IMG/VR virus record: IMGVR_UViG_3300021387_000147
Reading direction: 5' to 3' (one strand)
Length of the DNA: 64,000 bases
Source of the DNA: a virus
Lineage: Duplodnaviria; Caudoviricetes
Shown piece by piece: positions 1,393-18,236 of this stretch. Made by a program: the position numbers and the translations under genes. Numbering within the stretch: position 1 is the first letter of the stretch; each line of letters starts with the position of its first letter. The notes beneath the pieces are model-generated. The model searched no databases, was not told the DNA's origin, and worked only from the letters and a program-made list of their open reading frames with translations.

Positions 1393-2142
1393 TTAAACCT
1401 CCATCATAGTTTCAATTGCATTTGGAAGATGCGGATCAAAGTAAGGAATTCGAACAATATCCAGCTTAAACTTATTCTTTCGATACATATCCATAATCTT
1501 TTCAAAATGAGGACCCTTAATGCCCTTACGAATAAGTTCATTTACTTCATGATACGTAAATCCAAGTTTGTCTTCATCTGTCTTTGGCTGAAGACCATCA
1601 ATTGGAACCTTATGAACCAGTTCATAAGGAAGACCGAGGTCATCACCAATATCCATTATTTCTTCTGTAGTAAGTTTACTTAGAGCAGCGAACGAACCAG
1701 CATTATCGCCATACAAAGTTGCATAGCCAACGGTATCTTCACTCAAATTACAAGTATTTGCAACAAATCCACCAACAGTCTGAGCAACTGCATACAAAGT
1801 GCTCATACGAAGACGAGCAGGCAAATTAGTCAAAGTATCATAACTGAGTTCTACGCCCAAATTAATTGCATTGCAAAGGTCATTGAATGCATTTCCAATA
1901 TTGACTGTAGTGCTCTTAATTCCAAGAAAATCAATAAGCTTCTGACTGTCTCCAATATCCTTCTGAATACCACAGGGCATCATAACGCCAATTACGTTTT
2001 CTGGACCAATTGCTTTAGCGCAAATTGCAGCGACTACAGAACTATCCTTTCCACCAGAAATTCCAATAACTACCTTTGTCTGATGATTCTTTTCAAGAAT
2101 TGCCTTAGTCCAGTTAACACAATTACGAGTCAGAGTCTTCAT
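1393..2142 (-). CDS. nadE: NH3-dependent NAD+ synthetase
   Basis: GISGGKDS PP-loop, NLPARLRM, N.SE..VGY.TLYGD, P.DGL...TDE..LG motifs. Confidence 0.95.
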   Translation of the reverse strand: MKTLTRNCVNWTKAILEKNHQTKVVIGISGGKDSSVVAAICAKAIGPENVIGVMMPCGIQKDIGDSQKLIDFLGIKSTTVNIGNAFNDLCNAINLGVELSYDTLTNLPARLRMSTLYAVAQTVGGFVANTCNLSEDTVGYATLYGDNAGSFAALSKLTTEEIMDIGDDLGLPYELVHKVPIDGLQPKTDEDKLGFTYHEVNELIRKGIKGPHFEKIMDMYRKNKFKLDIVRIPYFDPHLPNAIETMMEV

Positions 2143-2158: not shown

Positions 2159-2695
2159 TTAAATTACTTCGATTTCCTGTGCACGAAGAACAGCGAGAGC
2201 ATGTTCCTTTGCTTCCTTTGTCACACCTTCGGTGAGCTTAGCGATAACCTTAATAGGCTTATCAGGGAACATTGCACGGAGAATTACAGCATTGGCGAGC
2301 ACACAAATTTCAGTGCAAAAACCAATCAAAACAATTTCTTCAGCCTGTGCAATAATACGCTGGAGACCTTCATTGTTCCAATCCGTATATCCAAATGTAG
2401 GCTTATCAATTACAGCCTGAACCTTTGCACCAGCAGCGTTTGCGACGTCCTGTCGAACCATCCAACCTTCAGTGCCATGAATACAATGCTTCAAGCCCTT
2501 ATCTGCAGGAAGATACTTACCTTCGAGCGAATTTTCATAAATTCCATCAACGTGAGTGTCACGAGTGAATACAACTGGACCTTGCCAATTCTTGATAAAT
2601 TCAACAATATCAGGGATAATTGCTTCAGCGTCCTTGTTTGCGAGTGCGCCTGTAATAAAATCAGGCTGAATATCAATACCAACTAGAGTCTTCAT
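2159..2695 (-). CDS. pncA: Nicotinamidase (isochorismatase family)
   Basis: IDIQPDF..GAL, TRDTH, HC..GT.G, DKPTFG, GFCTEICV; adjacent to nadE. Confidence 0.9.
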   Translation of the reverse strand: MKTLVGIDIQPDFITGALANKDAEAIIPDIVEFIKNWQGPVVFTRDTHVDGIYENSLEGKYLPADKGLKHCIHGTEGWMVRQDVANAAGAKVQAVIDKPTFGYTDWNNEGLQRIIAQAEEIVLIGFCTEICVLANAVILRAMFPDKPIKVIAKLTEGVTKEAKEHALAVLRAQEIEVI

Positions 2696-3249: not shown

Positions 3250-6200
3250 TCAAGAAATAGATTTAATTTTGGCTTCCTTGAGTGCTTTTTTCATGTTCTG
3301 TAAATAAGAATTTACAAATGGGAGGATAGTGTCAAAATTTGACACTTCCTTAATATATTCCTTTTCTTTCACAATTGGAATGATTTTTTCACCAAATTCC
3401 CGGCCAAGCATTCTATTATTTTCCATTACATTTTTGTCAGGATTTGGAAATGAATAATAAATTAAATCATTTGCTTCACCAATTAAATTTTGAATAAATC
3501 GACTAGGCTTATAATTCAAAACCAAATTTTTATCTACACCATGACCATACGTATAAGCCTTATAAACAATTTCATAAATTGTATCGACTTTTTGTCTAAT
3601 CATGATAGGAGCAATAAATGCATCATGCCTAATCATAATAGTTGCAATTCCAGGCCAGGTTTCTCTATCAACTGTACATTCTGGTAAATTATCTTTTAAA
3701 TATTGCAATAATCTTTGTTCTGTTTTATAAAGATAATTAGCATAATTAGGATCATTTTGATTTGGTCCTTTTTCTACAATGAACATCCTATAACTCCAAT
3801 TGCTTTAATTTTAGCTTTTTTAATTGTTCTATGATAACCTTTATAGAGATCTGTAATAAATGGAATTACATCTTCAAAGTTTTCAAATGATTTCTTAATC
3901 ATTTTCTTTTCAACTACTTGAATATGATAATCTGAATTGACTGCGATTTCTGTTCCATTTAGTTCATCTTTAGGTTGAAGTCTATGTGCAAAAGATGAAA
4001 AACATTGAGCTAATTTAGCTAATTCAGATTTTGTATTAACTAACCTACTAAAATCCAAATCAGAATAGACAACTTCAAAATCAGTTGGATTTACATTTAT
4101 AAGAACCTTAAGATTGAAATTATCAGTTAATGAATAATTACAGACATTTCTATATCGTAAATCATATTCAGGAAATTCTTTAGCAATAGAATCAAAATAA
4201 TAAAAACGATCACCAAAGTATTTCTTTCTTCTATCTTCTATTGTTCCCATAACTTGTTCCTTTAAATGCTTATAATATTCAATATCTTCTTGTGTAGGAT
4301 TTACAATTGAAGGAGGTAGTAAATAACCACATAATCTAGTGACTGTCAATTCAGGAATATCAGTAATCATCTTCGTCTGCTCCAATTTGTTTAATTTGAA
4401 ATACTTTCATTTTAACTTTTAAATCATTAATATACTTAAAGAATGCTTCTTCAACTTCTTCAATAGAATGACATGGTTCAATCATCTGGGTAGATTTAAT
4501 ATTGCACATAATATCACGTTGTCCACTATTATGATTAGCTATAAGTTGATCATTCCATACATTAAACATTTGTCTTAATGTTGCAACTGAATATTCAACA
4601 TCTTGGAATCTACATTCATAAACAGTTCTTGTTGTTAAATCTATAGGACTTGTAATAGGAACTGGCTTAATAAAAAACTTTCCAGCAAGATAACTGTCAT
4701 AAAGCACTACATTATCACGATTATCACCAATGATATTAAAATGATAACCTTCACGTTGAAGCTTTCTAAAATGTTCAACAATCATCATCTTTTCTTGAGC
4801 AAATTTCATTCTATCAGTATAATTTGTCATCTTCTTTCTCTTTACAAATATGTTCAATTAAATATCTTTTTTCAATTCCATCAAGTTTATGCAACCAACA
4901 TGCAACATCTGTTATAACTTCATCTTCAGTATTAATTGAAGTCCAACCAGAAACAGGCACTACATAATAACCATATTTTTGTTGGCCAACATTACCATCA
5001 CCTTTATCATAGAAATATGGCATATCTAATGTTTTAACTAACATTGAATCTTTATGACAATCAAAATAATTAGGTTCACCAAAGATTTTGTAAGCAGTTC
5101 TATATTTGTTATGACAAACATAAAATGAATTTTGACTATTGCCAACAACTACAGATACCATAGGAACATCTTTATAAATTGCATTTAATCTATTATACAA
5201 GTTTTTACAATGACCTAAAAATTCATTAATTAACATAATATCTCCTTAGTTCATCCAAGTCATATAATCACTATAATAATCAGGTTCTTTTTTACCAATA
5301 GATTTAATTGCAATCAATTTTTCAACTTTAGCAATTTCTCTTTTATATTCTTGATACTTATCAAAAATAGAATCTACAGATGTTGTTAAAAATGCACGTT
5401 TTTGTCTATTATCCATTACATAACTATAACTATCTGCATTCTTATCATAAATTGGAAATTCATAATCTACTCTGAAAGAACTATAAGCTCTATCAAAAGA
5501 AATAATAAAATCATATTGCAATCTTGGATAACGAATAGTAATTAAATCACTAATGCAACTATAAGTGTCAACTAAAACTTGTTCACCTTTATTTTTATCA
5601 ATTAATTCATCAAATGCATTAAACAAATGAAATGCTAATGTATTCTGACTACCTTTGTTTTGTGATTTCAAATAATCATCAACTGCATTTTTCAAACCAT
5701 TCATATTGCTTCAATCCTTGCTTTTAAAATTTTCTTGTTTATTTCATTCATCCAAATTTGAACATCATTTTTAATTTCGTCAAATGAATTTAATGTTTTA
5801 TGATGTGAACAATTAATAGAATATAATCTTTTTTTGTTAATAGTTATTGGATGCATTTCATATTCATGAATCATATCATCACTTACTCTGTTCCAATATT
5901 CATATCTTAATGAGTCAAAATCAGTTGAAAATTTTATTGGCATATATGCATTAATTTCATACCAAGGTTTCTCACCAACATTAAAAAATTTCATTACAAT
6001 CTTATACATTACATTATTATACATAATGTTAGCACATTCTGATGCATAATGAGAAACTAAAACATCAGGAAATACTTTTGTAATATCAATTAAATCATCA
6101 CGGAATTTTTCATAAACATCGTATTCATACGTTTTACAAGTTATTGGAATAAGACTAATCATATTGCTTCAATCCTTGCCTTAAGTGCATCTTTTTTTAT

Positions 6201-7982: not shown

Positions 7983-8158
7983 TAGCTCCCCATTTTGTTG
8001 AGTTTTTCAATAATAGCATGCACTTCAGACTGCAAACTATTATCGAACTTCTTTGAAAGCGCCTTACACTTGGCCCTCATTTCATAACTTGGACCCTTAT
8101 TTGAATACACATAAAGCGCAGTAGCAATTACTTGCTTTTCTTCTTCAGTCAATTCCAT
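7982..8158 (-). CDS. 58-aa hypothetical protein (not in ORF track)
   Basis: MELTEEEKQVIATALY...KLNKMGS; fills the gap with TAATG overlaps at both ends. Confidence 0.7.
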   Translation of the reverse strand: MELTEEEKQVIATALYVYSNKGPSYEMRAKCKALSKKFDNSLQSEVHAIIEKLNKMGS

Positions 8159-9468
8159 TACACATTCCTTCCATTTTCATACACATACTTGAGAGTCGGG
8201 AAGCGGAGGCTATATTCACCAGCCTTATTCTTCGTTTCTTCAAAGTACTTGATTGTCACAGTCTTACCGATAATCTTGGACGGCTTCTTCATCCATTCAA
8301 TTCGCTGTTCACGAGAAAGACCGCTACCAACATTCACCTTATTTCCCTTATGTTCAATGATAAGAGACTTAACACCAGTGAACTTCACATTGCCCTTACC
8401 AGGTTCAGAAGTAGTCATTTCAGCAATTTCAATATCCTTCACAACATATTCATCATCGAAGAACTTCTTAACCTTCAAGAGGTTCTTAGTACGACCAACT
8501 TCAAATTCAACGTCCTTACGAAGCATGAAGCCTTCCCAATCACCATCTTCCACATACTGAGACCAACGGTCAAAATCTTCCTGAGAAGTAATGCGTTCCT
8601 GTTCGAGCAACTTGATAGTAGTGAACTTGTTGCCCTTAAACATTTTCTGCATTTCCTTATAACGTTCAGAGAAGATAGCAGACTTTGTCTTCATTTCGAA
8701 TTCCTTCAACGTCACAAAGTCAAAAATCTGATAGCACGGATTTTCAATAGTCCAATTCTTCTTCTTAATTTCCTTCATGATCCAATCGAAGTGCTCATCG
8801 CCATTTTCGTCAACAATGCAAAGTTCACCATCGAAAACATAATTGCCAGTCGGAAGATTACGAACAAGCCATTCCACACCTTCCTTAACATTGTCGAGAG
8901 TAGTAAACGGCTTTCCCTGACGAGAAATAAAGTCAACAGAAACATTCTTAGAAGTCTTCTTAACCATTGCAACGCAACGACAACCATCACACTTACGAGA
9001 AGCAAAGAAAGTACCATCAATCGGATTTACACCCTTTACTTTGTCAAGAAGATGAGCAAGAGTGACAGTAAATTCAGCAGTGGCTTCCTCACCGATTAAC
9101 TTGTCGAAAGAAGCCTTAGAAAGACCAATCGTCAACTTACGCTGAAGAATTGCCTTCAAAATTTCATGGTCAGCCTTGACAAAACCACCAATAGTCTTTT
9201 CAACGAGAGCGATAGCATCATTGCCAGTCACTTCACGAGCATTCAGCTTATCCAACATTTTGTGGAATTTCTTATAGTCGTGGTCAATCGTATCCCAACC
9301 GCCCTTAGTAGGCATATCAAACTTCTTAACGCCGTAATTACGGTCCTTGTTGTAAGTGTCTTCGTAAATCTGCTTGATGGTATCATTGATATTGTCATTC
9401 ATAATGGCAGACTTTTCAGCAGTGCCAGCAGTAGAAGAAATCTTAGAGAAAAGCTTACGAATTTCCAT
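8158..9468 (-). CDS. lig: ATP-dependent DNA ligase
   Basis: SRKCDGCRC (KxDG), FDGEL, WEGFMLR, LLKVK, VGSG, SLRFP motifs; start at MEIRK after GAGG RBS and promoter. Confidence 0.93.
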   Translation of the reverse strand: MEIRKLFSKISSTAGTAEKSAIMNDNINDTIKQIYEDTYNKDRNYGVKKFDMPTKGGWDTIDHDYKKFHKMLDKLNAREVTGNDAIALVEKTIGGFVKADHEILKAILQRKLTIGLSKASFDKLIGEEATAEFTVTLAHLLDKVKGVNPIDGTFFASRKCDGCRCVAMVKKTSKNVSVDFISRQGKPFTTLDNVKEGVEWLVRNLPTGNYVFDGELCIVDENGDEHFDWIMKEIKKKNWTIENPCYQIFDFVTLKEFEMKTKSAIFSERYKEMQKMFKGNKFTTIKLLEQERITSQEDFDRWSQYVEDGDWEGFMLRKDVEFEVGRTKNLLKVKKFFDDEYVVKDIEIAEMTTSEPGKGNVKFTGVKSLIIEHKGNKVNVGSGLSREQRIEWMKKPSKIIGKTVTIKYFEETKNKAGEYSLRFPTLKYVYENGRNV

Positions 9469-9498
9469 ATTTAAACCTCTTTTAATTTTTACAAGTAT

Positions 9499-9605
9499 AA
9501 TATAAGTATTTTGGAATGTCCTGTCAACCCTAAAATGTGTAAAATATTGTTTACAATACCAAAAAAAGCGCCCTTGGAGACGCTTTTTGTAAATTTTTAT
9601 TAACA
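9499..9605 (-). promoter_or_regulatory. Conserved promoter + operator (copy 2, two boxes)
   Basis: TTGACA(9522-9527)-N17-TATATT(9499-9504); boxes at 9538-9555 and 9588-9605 (1 mismatch). Confidence 0.85.
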
Positions 9606-9621
9606 TTCTACGAACAATATG

Positions 9622-10089
9622 TTAACATTTTGTTAACACTATGCATTCCTTTTCATTTTCCTTAAAATTATGGAGAATTTTAAACATTTTGGATGCAATT
9701 TTAGCATAATCTCGATAGTTTTGAGAAATCCATATATCATTTCGTTTGTTAACGTATCTATACCATAAGTTATCCAAACATAAATTTTGTTTATAATGTT
9801 CCTCATTCACATCGATAATTTCAATTACTCCATCATCCCTTAGATAATTCTTTAGATTTTCAAACAACTTTTGGAGATTTGGAATGTGATGAATTACATT
9901 TCTCAATCTAAAAATAGATACAGAATTGTGTGGTAATTCTCCATCTTTGTTATAGATTTTGTAATCAATCACATTATAATCTAAACATGGATTTGTAGTA
10001 AAATCACATGTTTTATAACCTTTTTTAGGGTTATAACCAGAGCCATAATCAATGAATAGGCTTTGAGTCGATGAAGTCTTTGAGTGCAT
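9622..10089 (-). CDS. Class I SAM-dependent methyltransferase-like protein
   Basis: IDYGSG motif I, NVIHHI...LF..L...LRDDGVIEI. Confidence 0.65.
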   Translation of the reverse strand: MHSKTSSTQSLFIDYGSGYNPKKGYKTCDFTTNPCLDYNVIDYKIYNKDGELPHNSVSIFRLRNVIHHIPNLQKLFENLKNYLRDDGVIEIIDVNEEHYKQNLCLDNLWYRYVNKRNDIWISQNYRDYAKIASKMFKILHNFKENEKECIVLTKC

Positions 10090-10891
10090 CTAAATCTAAT
10101 TCCTCATAATCTGCAGAACTATAAGTCTTATTCAATGAACTATTACCAATCTTCTTACAGTATTGTTCCCATTTACAGAAATTGCCTACTGGAGTAATAA
10201 TAATATCGGTAGCATCGTAGCCTGTATAATTACCGAAAACACCAAATTGATGGCTATTTCCTTTTTCGTCTTTCCATATATAGTCATAAAAATTACAATT
10301 GTCATCCTTAACTTTTGAAGTTCCCATCTTTTCCTGGAAATCAAAATCAGAATATCTACCCATAAGGTCTTCACAGACAACTACATAGAAATTATCAGTC
10401 AAACATGCTTTTAACAATTCAACCAATTTGTCACCTGTAGATTCATTACATTTAGGAATATTCAATCTTGTATTAGGAATATACTTTTTACATAGAAGAG
10501 CTTGATCACGTCTTCTTGCATACTGTTCAATAGAAGATACAGAAATAGCAACTTCAGTTAAACCAGCCTCAGCGTAAGATTTAATACGTTCTTCATCTAA
10601 GAGAATTCCATTAGTGACAAGACAAACATCTTCAGATACATGTGCTTTAACAGCTCTAATAATATCAGGAAGGTCTTTTCTAATAGTTGATTCTCCACCC
10701 ATGATAGTTGCACGTTTAAGAATACCAACTTTATCCATAGTTGATATTGCTTTCTGCATATCTAATTGAAGAGGATCTTTTAAAGGTTGATAACAAAAAT
10801 AACAGTTTCCATGAGGTCCAGTGGATTCATTCATGTTGCAGTTAAGATTTGTTATCACTCTATATCTAAATATTGATTTTTTAACACCCAT
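10049..10891 (-). CDS. Radical SAM protein with atypical CX11CX2C motif
   Basis: ITNLNCN..GNCYFCYQ, MGGE, VTNGILL, ISV. Confidence 0.85.
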   Translation of the reverse strand: MGVKKSIFRYRVITNLNCNMNESTGPHGNCYFCYQPLKDPLQLDMQKAISTMDKVGILKRATIMGGESTIRKDLPDIIRAVKAHVSEDVCLVTNGILLDEERIKSYAEAGLTEVAISVSSIEQYARRRDQALLCKKYIPNTRLNIPKCNESTGDKLVELLKACLTDNFYVVVCEDLMGRYSDFDFQEKMGTSKVKDDNCNFYDYIWKDEKGNSHQFGVFGNYTGYDATDIIITPVGNFCKWEQYCKKIGNSSLNKTYSSADYEELDLDALKDFIDSKPIH

Positions 10892-11682
10892 TAGACTAAG
10901 TTAATTCCTTCAATGATTCCATCACCAAGATTATTGGCATCAGAGGTTTCATTCTTATTAATTGGAGACAATTTAATAAAGAAGTGGTCTTTATCAAAAT
11001 ACTTTTCTAATAGAGCTAAATCAAAATCATCTTCATTTACAAGAGTCATATTGATAGTAGTCTTCAAATTAGATTTTGTTCTAATTGCACCTAATTCCTC
11101 AAGAGTCATCTTATTCTTATATGGAATTAACCAATTTCTATGGTCTTCATCAAAAGAATGCAAAGAAATCTGTAATGTAGTATTACCTTCAATCCAAGAG
11201 AAATCTGTTCCCTTAATACCAATTGTAGATACGTAAATATGAACATTTGGATATTTGTCTCTTAAGATTTTTGCCGCTTTCTGAACATTATCCCAATTCA
11301 AAGCAGGTTCACCCATTCTAGTCATATTGACCTTAAATTCTTTACACTTATTTGTGTCAATTTCTGGATGAAGATTACGAATCCAATCTACTTGTTCAAC
11401 CATTTCTTCTGCAGTCAAATTACGATATTTTGCTTTCATTTGACCAGTTGCACAGAACTTACAATGAACTGGACAACCACTCATACAAGAAATACCAATC
11501 ATCCAACGTTCAGTTCTATCACCTAATTCATAATTATTAAGCTTATTTTGTTTCTTACCAATAGCATCCTTTGTATAGAATGGAAGGAATGTATCAGTAC
11601 TTTCAATTAGTTTACCGTCTGGAAGTGCAAAACAATATACACTACCATTTGCAAAGTGTCTTGCTTTCTTTTCTGTTAACAT
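10891..11682 (-). CDS. RlmN/Cfr-like radical SAM enzyme lacking the C-terminal AACGQL segment
   Basis: GCPVHCKFCATG, RNLTAEEMVEQV, MGEP..N, VSTIG, LQISLH....R..LIP. Confidence 0.9.
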   Translation of the reverse strand: MLTEKKARHFANGSVYCFALPDGKLIESTDTFLPFYTKDAIGKKQNKLNNYELGDRTERWMIGISCMSGCPVHCKFCATGQMKAKYRNLTAEEMVEQVDWIRNLHPEIDTNKCKEFKVNMTRMGEPALNWDNVQKAAKILRDKYPNVHIYVSTIGIKGTDFSWIEGNTTLQISLHSFDEDHRNWLIPYKNKMTLEELGAIRTKSNLKTTINMTLVNEDDFDLALLEKYFDKDHFFIKLSPINKNETSDANNLGDGIIEGINLV

Positions 11683-11694
11683 ATATCAAATCCT

Positions 11695-11725
11695 AAAACA
11701 ATGGAGAGGTTATCTCCATTGTTTT
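11695..11725 (-). terminator. 13-bp perfect hairpin between the peptide and enzyme genes
   Basis: aaaacaatggaga-ggtta-tctccattgtttt. Confidence 0.75.
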
Positions 11726-11740
11726 TATTTAAGTTTTTAT

Positions 11741-11875
11741 TTATTCTTCATCCTGAACTTCAAGGATTGTTGCTAGCTGTCCACATGCGGCCTGAGCTTT
11801 ACGTTCTGCTTCAGTTGCAATAGCGACTGCGTAATCATATCCTGCTTGTTCTAACTGTTCCTTAATCTTATTCAT
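11741..11875 (-). CDS. 44-aa peptide equivalent to the RlmN C-terminal methyl-carrier segment (not in ORF track)
   Basis: MNKIKEQLEQAGYDYAVAIATEAERKAQAACGQLATILEVQDEE; AAGGAG RBS within 11881-11888. Confidence 0.9.
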   Translation of the reverse strand: MNKIKEQLEQAGYDYAVAIATEAERKAQAACGQLATILEVQDEE

Positions 11876-11889
11876 CTTTTTACTCCTTA

Positions 11890-14287: not shown

Positions 14288-15328
14288 TTATTCTTCCTTT
14301 AAAAAGTCGTTAATAATTTGTTCATGATGGAATGCCAGTTTAGGCAGTTCATCGATTTGGAACCATCTTGCATCACACGCATCATCCAAACCCTTTACTT
14401 TGTCCATATCCTTTTTGGAGACACGCACACTAAATGCAACGTCAACAATCTTCATACGAGGATCAAAGTTATGGCCATAAGTCTTGATTTGTCTGAAATA
14501 CTTCGGATCAATATCAATTCCAGTTTCTTCTTTGAGCTCACGCTGAGCACCAAAATTCAAGTCTGCATCAGTCTTTTCAAAAAATCCACCAGGCAATGCC
14601 CAATAATTCTTATATGGATAATTTCCACGACGAATTAGCAAAATCTTATCACCATTGTAAGCAACCGTGTCTGTAGTCACACTCGGCTCACCCCAATGAT
14701 TCTTTTCCTTCTTAACTGCATATTCCTTAAGGAATTCCTTTTCCTTTTCATTGTAATCATTTTCATTCTGAAAATAAAGTGCATTGTCCTTAATATAACG
14801 GAATACAACATGTGTAATGTAATCTCGAACGTCACTGTAATGGCATTCAGGATTTTTAAACAAAATTTCACGAACTGCTGACGAAGAAATTCCATCAGTT
14901 GCATCTTCAGCACCAATGAAAGTCACATTTGGATTTATACCAGCCGGCAGTGTAATTTCATCATTATCTTCACGATAAAATACCAAAAATTCATAATGCT
15001 TCAAAAGCAAATCCCAATTTACCCATTTTCCAGCGCAAAGCGAATGCCATTCATCTTCACCCATACAAATCGTAATCTTTTCACCACGATAATGAGCATC
15101 AAGATATGCATAAGTTCTTTTGTCTTGAATTACAATTTCATGTGCATCCAAAGACTTCTTGACCATGTTTAGGCGGTCATTTACAGAAACATTATAATTC
15201 TTTTCATCATTTTTGACAATTCCAATAATTAACTTATCAGAATTTCTCATTTCTTTCTTAATAGTGCGGATAATTGCTTCATGCGCTTTCGTAATCGGAT
15301 CAAAAGTTCCACCGTAATAGTAAATCAT
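14288..15328 (-). CDS. nadD: Nicotinate/nicotinamide nucleotide adenylyltransferase fused to a Nudix (ADP-ribose pyrophosphatase-type) domain
   Basis: GGTFDPITKAH, MGED, ISSSAVRE; WALPGGF...RELKEETG Nudix box, DPR, GLDDA..ARWF..DELPKLAFHH. Confidence 0.88.
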   Translation of the reverse strand: MIYYYGGTFDPITKAHEAIIRTIKKEMRNSDKLIIGIVKNDEKNYNVSVNDRLNMVKKSLDAHEIVIQDKRTYAYLDAHYRGEKITICMGEDEWHSLCAGKWVNWDLLLKHYEFLVFYREDNDEITLPAGINPNVTFIGAEDATDGISSSAVREILFKNPECHYSDVRDYITHVVFRYIKDNALYFQNENDYNEKEKEFLKEYAVKKEKNHWGEPSVTTDTVAYNGDKILLIRRGNYPYKNYWALPGGFFEKTDADLNFGAQRELKEETGIDIDPKYFRQIKTYGHNFDPRMKIVDVAFSVRVSKKDMDKVKGLDDACDARWFQIDELPKLAFHHEQIINDFLKEE

Positions 15329-16961: not shown

Positions 16962-16987
16962 AAGACACGCTCTTTCGAACGTATCTT
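16962..16987 (-). terminator. Intrinsic terminator with GAAA tetraloop
   Basis: AAGATACGTTC-GAAA-GAGCGTGTCTT then TCTT, directly after the RNA ligase stop. Confidence 0.6.
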
Positions 16988-18236
16988 AAATAGAATAGTT
17001 AGGATTTTTCACCTTGAAAGAAACATTGTAATCATCTTTTAGACGCAATACAAATCCTTCTCTCTTGTGCTTCAAATTGTTTCCAAATACAGTATTCTTA
17101 TCAGACTGTTGCAACATAATATCTGCACCAGAGACAAATACTCCCTGTTCATTTGTATGACCTTCTGGAAGCTTGTAATGTTCATCCAGAACTGGAACAA
17201 ATGGCAAATCCCATTTCTTTGCGAAAGCGATACTTTCATCGAAGTTCAACTTTACCCACTTTCCTTCAACCTTCTTGTAGAAGTCGAAGAAATATACTTC
17301 TGTTCTCTTCAATTGGTAGATATTTCCCTGAATTCCTGGTCCAACATGTTCACCACGGCAGAACCATTCTCCAGGAATATTCTTAATCTTTTCATCCAAA
17401 TGAAGTCTCTTGACAGTGTCCCAGAAACCATGAGAATTACCATTAGGATTTAATTCACGAGTTCTAGAACATACGCCAATTCGCTTGGTCTTTCTTCCAA
17501 ACCAACCATTAACAATTTCAGAGTATACAGTGATATTCTGACCTTCAAGCTTTTCAGTTGCTACCCATTCCTTGTCTGCGTATTGAGCAAACATCTTAGT
17601 GTAAATCTTCTGCACATTTTCTTCATCAGACTTACTTGGGAATGTTGGATCCCATACTTCCGCAATATTATGACGCTTACGCCAATTACGGAACCACTTG
17701 TATTTCATCAACTTACGGACAAGCCATCCATCCTTCTTACCAGTATTCAATCCTGCTTCTTCTTCATCCTGCACAATTTCTGTAATATTGAACTGAATAG
17801 TGAAGTCCTGACCTTCCTTTACCTTGTCAGTAATTCCAAGATCAACAGGACGGAACAAAATACCCTGAGAAATTACACCAAACTTGGACAACTTCATACT
17901 CTTAATCTTGAACTTCTTATCACGTAAGAATTCAAAGTAAGGATATTTAGATTGTTCTTGAAGTGCCTTCAATGCATGTTCTCTTTCTTCATCGGTCATG
18001 TTCTTACCGATTTCATGATTTTTAAGCAAATTATACTTAATAGACAATTCACTATCAAGACCATCTGGAAGAAGAGAATCAACTTCAACATAAATTCCCA
18101 TATCACCAGGCTTGTATTCGCCCTTCTTTACAACAACAGTGTAGTCCATAACAGTTGCCAATTCAATTCTATCAGCACCTGGAATTTCACGGATTTCCTT
18201 AATCTTTACACCGTATGCCAATTTCTTTCCGTACAT
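16986..18236 (-). CDS. RNA ligase, Rnl2/DRB0094 family
   Basis: N-terminal I..IPGADRIELA.V....VVVKKGEY..GD...Y.EVDSLLP; TEKLEG, VCSR, GEHVGPGIQGN, FFDF, REGFV, SFKV.NP.Y. Confidence 0.9.
   Translation of the reverse strand: MYGKKLAYGVKIKEIREIPGADRIELATVMDYTVVVKKGEYKPGDMGIYVEVDSLLPDGLDSELSIKYNLLKNHEIGKNMTDEEREHALKALQEQSKYPYFEFLRDKKFKIKSMKLSKFGVISQGILFRPVDLGITDKVKEGQDFTIQFNITEIVQDEEEAGLNTGKKDGWLVRKLMKYKWFRNWRKRHNIAEVWDPTFPSKSDEENVQKIYTKMFAQYADKEWVATEKLEGQNITVYSEIVNGWFGRKTKRIGVCSRTRELNPNGNSHGFWDTVKRLHLDEKIKNIPGEWFCRGEHVGPGIQGNIYQLKRTEVYFFDFYKKVEGKWVKLNFDESIAFAKKWDLPFVPVLDEHYKLPEGHTNEQGVFVSGADIMLQQSDKNTVFGNNLKHKREGFVLRLKDDYNVSFKVKNPNYSI

Follow-up and report, generated by a model that had tools for sequence, protein, structure and literature searches.

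An RlmN/Cfr-type radical SAM core in phages whose counterpart of the methyl-carrier cysteine segment lies on a separate small peptide

The 64,000-nucleotide stretch of the tailed-virus record IMGVR_UViG_3300021387_000147 (Duplodnaviria; Caudoviricetes), hereafter the window, carries on its minus strand a head-to-tail cassette of four genes, which encode a 44-residue peptide, two radical S-adenosylmethionine (SAM) enzymes named here rSAM1 and rSAM2, and a small methyltransferase-like protein, MT155. A sequence-only reading of this DNA had described the peptide and rSAM1 as a split and permuted RlmN/Cfr-type methyltransferase with its methyl-carrier cysteine on the upstream peptide. We followed up this proposal by family, structure and genome comparisons. 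The features of the cassette, in the order of transcription, are the following.

11883-11888, minus strand: AAGGAG ribosome-binding site, read from the sequence, 7 nt ahead of the ATG of the peptide gene.
11741-11875, minus strand: gene of the 44-residue peptide, counterpart of the C-terminal helix, strand and Cys355 loop of RlmN; codon of Cys31 at 11783-11785.
11695-11725, no strand assigned: perfect 13-bp hairpin that resembles a terminator in either direction; it lies within the 58 nt that separate the peptide gene from rSAM1.
10891-11682, minus strand: rSAM1, a 263-residue RlmN/Cfr-type radical SAM core; cluster cysteines C70, C74 and C77; codon of Gly63 at 11494-11496.
10049-10891, minus strand: rSAM2, a 280-residue second radical SAM enzyme with CX11CX2C, recognised from family matches, its AlphaFold2 model and Foldseek.
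9622-10089, minus strand: MT155, a 155-residue small class-I methyltransferase-like protein (Methyltransf_23, E 6.5e-7; phrog_5399, E 7e-31).

The stop codon of rSAM1 overlaps the start codon of rSAM2 as TAATG. Because both genes share a strand and that of the peptide comes first, neither frameshift nor readthrough can join the two pieces, as the sequence-only reading had stated; the ribosome-binding site that it assigned to the 44-residue open reading frame is likewise in place.

The rSAM1 protein displays the motifs GC-x3-C-x2-C-ATG, MGEP and ISLH. The Pfam scan returned only the generic Radical_SAM family (PF04055, E 1.3e-12), while the top eight NCBIfam models were all of the RlmN/Cfr type, the best being TIGR00048 (E 5.5e-21), which is matched only over model positions 102-245 of 355, at 74.9 bits where the cut-off is 290 bits. 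Among the PDB sequences RlmN was matched best (6fz6, 1.4e-11), and Cfr was matched as well. The AlphaFold2 model of rSAM1 (predicted local distance difference test, pLDDT, 93.8) retrieved RlmN and Cfr structures at Foldseek ranks 1-11 with E values from 6.6e-13 to 3e-7, and the next folds, TYW1 and pyruvate formate-lyase (PFL) activase, followed at about 1e-4, a gap of some three orders of magnitude in E. rSAM1 lacks the N-terminal helical (helix-hairpin-helix-like) RNA-binding domain that marks RlmN proper: matches begin at RlmN model position 102 and at about chain residue 113, and the first 57 residues of the rSAM1 model form three strands and a loop. At its other end rSAM1 stops just ahead of the final helix-strand-loop of RlmN, the Cys355 segment. 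The earlier description of an open reading frame with RlmN hallmarks that ends before the AACGQL segment holds. Following from motif and fold, rSAM1 is predicted to bind a [4Fe-4S] cluster and SAM, and the only cysteines of rSAM1 that are invariant among its relatives are the three of the cluster. Class A radical SAM methyltransferases “use two conserved cysteine residues” (PMC9692996). Like them, rSAM1 has a single radical SAM domain with CX3CX2C, and its nearest relatives in sequence and fold are RlmN and Cfr; the methyl-carrier cysteine (Cys355 in RlmN, Cys338 in Cfr) is not in the same polypeptide, its equivalent being offered in trans only by Cys31 of the peptide, and at the position of the second, resolving cysteine stands Gly63.

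By itself the peptide had no match in Pfam, NCBIfam, PHROG or PDB, and its homology to RlmN became visible by profile-profile comparison only. A profile built from 55 homologues of the peptide was set by hhalign against one of 25 RlmN-type proteins that are not split, E. coli RlmN among them; residues 1-40 of the peptide aligned to residues 326-364 of E. coli RlmN (probability 94.2%, E 1.2e-7), with AACGQL falling on AACGQL and Cys31 on Cys355. Aligned with unsplit relatives from phages, the C-terminus of rSAM1 and the N-terminus of the peptide fall on consecutive segments, so the split is seamless and nothing has been lost. As far as homology can tell, the peptide is RlmN's C-terminal element in detached form, with the helix, strand and AACGQL loop that rSAM1 lacks. 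The 55 homologues share 13 invariant positions, including G12, Y13, E24 and AACGQL, 164 clusters of homologues that stand alone, 38-77 residues long, are present in the protein database, and the free-standing gene is kept across hundreds of loci. In comparison with the closest relative of the window, locus L012, in which rSAM1 is 90% identical, the first 40 codons of the peptide gene comprise 20 identical, 19 synonymous and a single non-synonymous codon. Judged from this codon pattern, the peptide is a real gene under selection, and the claim of a methyl-carrier cysteine on a separate, conserved peptide holds. Among the peptide variants of L088/L089, L106 and L101, AACSQL or AACGMM replaces AACGQL, and in L101 the peptide match ends ahead of the cysteine.

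We compared 106 phage loci, 97 of which came from two IMG/VR scans with 275 and 17 confirmed matches. In about 100 of them the peptide gene stands beside rSAM1, in phages of Bacteroides, Moorella, Vibrio, Pectobacterium and Yersinia. Each always has a gene of its own unless the two are fused, and the fusions follow new orders. Most loci have the peptide downstream of rSAM1: 52 of the 106 show the layout rSAM1-peptide and 42 the layout rSAM1-rSAM2-MT155-peptide, whereas rSAM1-peptide-rSAM2-MT155 is found in L091 and L107, peptide-rSAM2-rSAM1-MT155 in L108, and peptide-rSAM1-rSAM2-MT155, the order of the window, in L012. The remaining loci are cut off or rearranged. In annotated genomes of several unrelated phages, the peptide directly follows rSAM1 in Kehishuvirus ‘tikkala’, which is a crAss-like phage of Bacteroides, and in Moorella phage MTATph1, and lies one gene further downstream in Pectobacterium phage Arno18 and Yersinia phage P778. 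Spacing is tight in many loci, where the genes are 9 nt apart or the stop codon of one overlaps the start of the next. The upstream position of the peptide is therefore a rare but genuine variant of a module with free gene order: the swap seen in the window recurs in L012, in L108 and in natural N-terminal fusions.

The same comparison bears on the simplest alternative, namely that the two open reading frames are remnants of an intact RlmN-like gene that is decaying, broken or wrongly assembled, a condition that the sequence-only reading had itself named as fatal to its proposal. Unsplit phage RlmN-like genes with both cysteines do exist (L006, L007, L008 and L010) and could have been the source of such remnants. 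The two-gene layout in about 100 independent contigs and isolate genomes, purifying selection on both genes and the repetition of the gene order of the window in L012 make this explanation exceedingly improbable. Moreover, P0128, a metagenomic homologue of rSAM1, contains a LAGLIDADG intein inside its CX3CX2C cluster motif, which also speaks against decay. Inteins typically sit in functional genes.

An exhaustive search of representatives with rSAM1 (2881 matches, E up to 1e-3) yielded rare natural fusions of the pieces. The 315-residue protein P0129, present on two contigs (L092 and L093) and followed on each by an rSAM2-like gene, joins the peptide module, a linker of about 20 residues and then rSAM1 in one chain and is a true circular permutant, while the 695-residue P0131, on a 25-kb contig (L094), is a triple fusion of peptide, rSAM1 and rSAM2. 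A separate search for longer peptide-containing proteins gave one irrelevant match, and no rSAM2-peptide fusion was found among 120 homologues of rSAM2. Read as sequence evidence, the fusions argue that the peptide acts with rSAM1 and that rSAM2 takes part in the same process. In the window itself the two pieces are separate chains and only the gene order is permuted, so that of the phrase “split and permuted” the split and the swapped order stand, and permutation within a single chain is seen elsewhere, in P0129 and P0131.

Co-folding of core and peptide gave a score of 0.81 (0.81, 0.80 and 0.82 in three runs) against 0.00, 0.37 and 0.01 for the controls. The inputs were custom alignments of both chains, the 4Fe-4S cluster and SAM. 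The calibration did not extend to small molecules or custom alignments; of its 80 solved complexes 58 attained this mark, as did 2 of its 110 mismatched pairs. At least 84% of contacts recur across the runs, and the peptide pLDDT is at least 72. In the predicted complex the peptide strand YDYAV (residues 13-17) pairs with the last strand of the core (residues 234-238), and peptide residues 23-41, including Cys31, contact the core at residues 76-79, which belong to the cluster motif, and at 82-84 and 121-123. RlmN shows the same arrangement inside a single chain. The prediction supports, but does not prove, binding of core and peptide and, together with the natural fusions, backs the option of a two-chain enzyme raised by the sequence-only reading.

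The second catalytic cysteine of the RlmN family has been dropped. In the HMMER alignment Gly63 of rSAM1 falls on the mutated residue 118 of the RlmN C118A structure 4pl1, and glycine occupies this position in all 24 split-clade rows of the tree, so that the glycine noticed in the window is a property of the whole clade. Eighty-seven near-full-length relatives were sorted by the residue at position 118 and by the C-terminal CGQ motif, with the following result.

Cys at position 118: CGQ in the same chain in 26, no CGQ in 6.
Gly at position 118: CGQ in the same chain in 0, no CGQ in 23, N-terminal fusion in 1.
Another residue at position 118: CGQ in the same chain in 2, no CGQ in 29.

Glycine was never combined with the C-terminal CGQ motif, and 26 of the 32 relatives with cysteine carry the motif in-chain. 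On a quick maximum-likelihood tree one change of state suffices for each of the Gly and Cys groups, and the branch between them has 99% support by the Shimodaira-Hasegawa-like approximate likelihood ratio test (SH-aLRT). The cysteine three residues later, to which the sequence-only reading had drawn attention, is present in rSAM1 as C66, but it is no conserved substitute: most relatives have Thr or Val there, and only four of 48 distinct enzyme-peptide pairs have a cysteine. A second cysteine in the peptide occurs in 23 of these pairs and 21 have neither, which rules out both C66 and the second peptide cysteine as a general replacement for Cys118. A third RlmN-like clade of about 300 residues (the P0184-P0267 group of representatives, with L095 and Bacteroides phage Versailles, L009, as examples) has neither an equivalent of Cys118 nor an in-chain CGQ motif.

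Cys118, or Cys105 in Cfr, was reported to be indispensable for resolving the covalent RlmN/Cfr intermediate and is probably the base that triggers fragmentation (PMC9692996), and RlmN C118A accumulates a covalent protein-RNA adduct (PMC9692996; also the titles of PDB 5hr6/5hr7). With glycine clade-wide, the adduct must be released by other means. We consider it probable that peptide and rSAM1 form a two-chain, class-A-like radical SAM enzyme in which the cysteine loop is supplied in trans and the reaction on an adenine-type target is finished without Cys118. By analogy with RlmN, Cys31 would be methylated by one SAM, a second SAM would yield a 5'-deoxyadenosyl radical that takes a hydrogen from the Cys31 methyl group, and the resulting methylene radical would add to an sp2 carbon of the adenine-type substrate. 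Release of the adduct would then fall to another base, another thiol or a partner enzyme. The peptide would dock in trans whether encoded upstream, downstream or 1 kb away, or fused N-terminally, and such docking would explain why gene order is free.

Four points weigh against this two-chain reading. The loss of Cys118 across the clade means that the textbook RlmN cycle cannot run unchanged, and no conserved replacement cysteine is found, as the 21 of 48 systems without a second cysteine at the C66 position or in the peptide illustrate. The successful co-fold may reflect memory of solved RlmN, because the same elements touch within one RlmN chain, and would in that case indicate likeness rather than binding. 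Finally, a strict 1:1 structural subunit needs no tandem duplication such as that of the peptide in an open reading frame of Vibrio phage D479. This reading frame (L003, 3782-4063) holds two AGFDAGLAIATDAEV-x-AGAACGQMAIL units; in a 72%-identical relative, L097, a single peptide module is followed by a long C-terminal tail.

The tandem module would be easier to understand if the peptide were a consumable co-substrate or tag of which one is used per reaction. The methylene bridge between Cys31 and adenine would then not be resolved by the enzyme, and the peptide would either remain on the nucleotide or nucleic acid or be freed only by a second thiol or by a partner such as rSAM2. The glycine in every member of the split clade, the adduct that accumulates in RlmN C118A and the maintenance of the peptide as a free-standing gene all fit such a use, and a second cysteine in 23 of the 48 distinct peptides (for example in CGQMC or in a C-terminal IICE) could allow release by a thiol of the peptide itself. 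The fusions P0129 and P0131, on the other hand, would make the whole enzyme single-turnover or self-cross-linking, the tight translational coupling in many loci suggests equimolar synthesis, and the predicted strand pairing resembles a stable structural interface. The hairpin that had suggested an excess of peptide gives no help either. The 13-bp stem is real in the window (-17.7 kcal/mol, z -5.0 against shuffles), but L012 has no hairpin and a spacer of 18 nt, so that as a general feature it is ruled out as a sign of peptide made in excess. We regard consumption of the peptide as the main alternative, though a rather doubtful one.

In a related proposal the peptide is a mobile cysteine carrier, which would be loaded with methyl, dock on rSAM1, become methylene-bridged to the adenine of a nucleotide-type molecule, such as NAD, ADP-ribose, a nucleoside triphosphate or a nucleic-acid end, and then be passed to rSAM2 or other partners for release or further chemistry or be left attached. 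We rate this proposal as unlikely.

With its small peptide gene adjoining those of two radical SAM enzymes and a methyltransferase, the cassette also resembles a cluster for a ribosomally synthesized and post-translationally modified peptide (RiPP), in which the peptide would be the final substrate, made bioactive by rSAM1, rSAM2 and the methyltransferase. Such systems, e.g. SuiB/SuiA and PqqE/PqqA, likewise combine a small peptide gene with radical SAM genes and a peptide that docks on the enzyme. The phage peptide differs in that it derives from the enzyme's own fold, of which it is a detached part, and bears a catalytic residue. Over its full length it is homologous to a structural and catalytic segment of RlmN, it is almost invariant and shows no pattern of leader and core variation, neither rSAM1 nor rSAM2 matched a RiPP recognition element (RRE) or a SPASM domain, and the conserved gene set includes no protease or exporter. 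In addition, the layout of 52 of the 106 loci is rSAM1-peptide, and the system occurs in lytic phage genomes. The marks of a RiPP precursor and its maturase are therefore missing, and we hold this interpretation to be very improbable.

The partners of the putative two-chain enzyme offer some leads to its target. The AlphaFold2 model of rSAM2 (pLDDT 94) is nearest to MoaA/viperin-like structures in Foldseek, only slightly ahead of other radical SAM folds, and these modelled matches do not identify its substrate. The spacing of the first loop varies among its homologues (CX11 in 50, CX5 in 28 and CX3 in 33). The gene is linked to the system in many phages, and its product is fused to rSAM1 in P0131; one homologue, P0396, is fused to a metallophosphatase. 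MT155, a recurrent fourth member of the module, accompanies rSAM1 and the peptide in distant lineages (L091, L106, L107 and L108); its role might be to pre-load or to process the peptide or the product. Three genes related to nucleotide and NAD metabolism lie elsewhere in the window.

1393-2142, minus strand: NadE (NAD synthase).
2159-2695, minus strand: PncA-like isochorismatase.
14288-15328, minus strand: NMNAT-Nudix fusion.

In L012 a PncA gene is immediately upstream of the peptide and NadE is downstream of the cassette. Furthermore, a Nudix hydrolase gene is found upstream of rSAM1 in nine loci of at least five lineages. Because rSAM1 has no RNA-binding N-terminal domain and the system is linked to rSAM2, MT155 and Nudix/NAD-salvage genes, a nucleotide- or NAD-type substrate is a reasonable, if circumstantial, lead, at least as likely as rRNA or tRNA. 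No tRNA gene was found in the window, and the one unsplit relative located in a tRNA cluster belongs to another clade; a tRNA link was consequently dropped. Distant unsplit RlmN-like proteins (P0193, P0260, P0272 and P0199) bear C-terminal fusions to isochorismatase, HD/dGTPase-like and NUDIX domains, a sequence feature which hints that some phage or metagenomic RlmN-like enzymes may act on nucleotides. Near the cassette, the window also encodes an RNA ligase (PF09414) and an ATP-dependent DNA ligase, at 16986-18236 and 8158-9606 (minus strand). On the 169-kb viral contig L115, and in this single case, a thioredoxin gene (WCGPC; 3673-4038) is located downstream of rSAM1 and the peptide at a distance of about 240 nt.

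Among characterised enzymes, RlmN, the C2-methyltransferase of 23S rRNA A2503 and tRNA A37 (PDB 3RFA, 4PL1, 5HR6/5HR7 and 6FZ6), is the best match in sequence and structure. It shares with the phage system the radical SAM fold, CX3CX2C, MGEP, SLH, the N-terminal beta extension and the helix-strand-AACGQL loop. The phage system departs from it in having the Cys355 segment as a separate 44-residue product, glycine for Cys118 and no N-terminal helical domain, and in being phage-borne and often linked to a second radical SAM enzyme, a small methyltransferase and Nudix/NAD genes. Cfr, the C8-methyltransferase of 23S rRNA A2503 (PDB 9P0P), has the same class A architecture and two-step transfer via cysteine but is a weaker match; the phage system differs from it in the same respects, with no sign of an antibiotic-resistance function. 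The unsplit RlmN-like enzymes of Vibrio phage 166E36-1, Salmonella phage Arash and Stenotrophomonas phage BUCTxx99 also lack the N-terminal helical domain and align over the whole core, but they combine Cys at position 118 with a C-terminal GGGCGQLW in one chain and form a separate, well-supported clade. The RlmN C118A/S mutants resemble the split clade in having no thiol at 118, yet they are laboratory constructs that stall, whereas the split clade is a conserved natural variant, which presumably brings a useful reaction to completion. Our full-text literature searches, which did not cover subscription journals, found no paper on a split or phage RlmN-like system.

The phages thus harbour a natural clade of considerable size, with 275 matches in IMG/VR and hosts from at least five genera, in which the first cysteine has moved to a detachable peptide of 40-60 residues and the second has been dropped. 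This would mean either an alternative to the accepted release chemistry that is so far unknown or the deliberate formation of covalent peptide adducts, and both would be of interest to enzymologists. To study a catalytic loop supplied in trans, nature offers a ready-made system here in the free order of the genes, the circular permutants and the fusions. Moreover, linkage to a MoaA/viperin-like radical SAM enzyme, a mini-methyltransferase, Nudix and NAD salvage points to an unexplored phage pathway, which may act on nucleotides or NAD-derived molecules, central in current work on anti-phage defence. Should the peptide, against our expectation, turn out to be a mobile carrier, it would represent a phage-encoded peptide-nucleotide conjugation or carrier system used against host defences.

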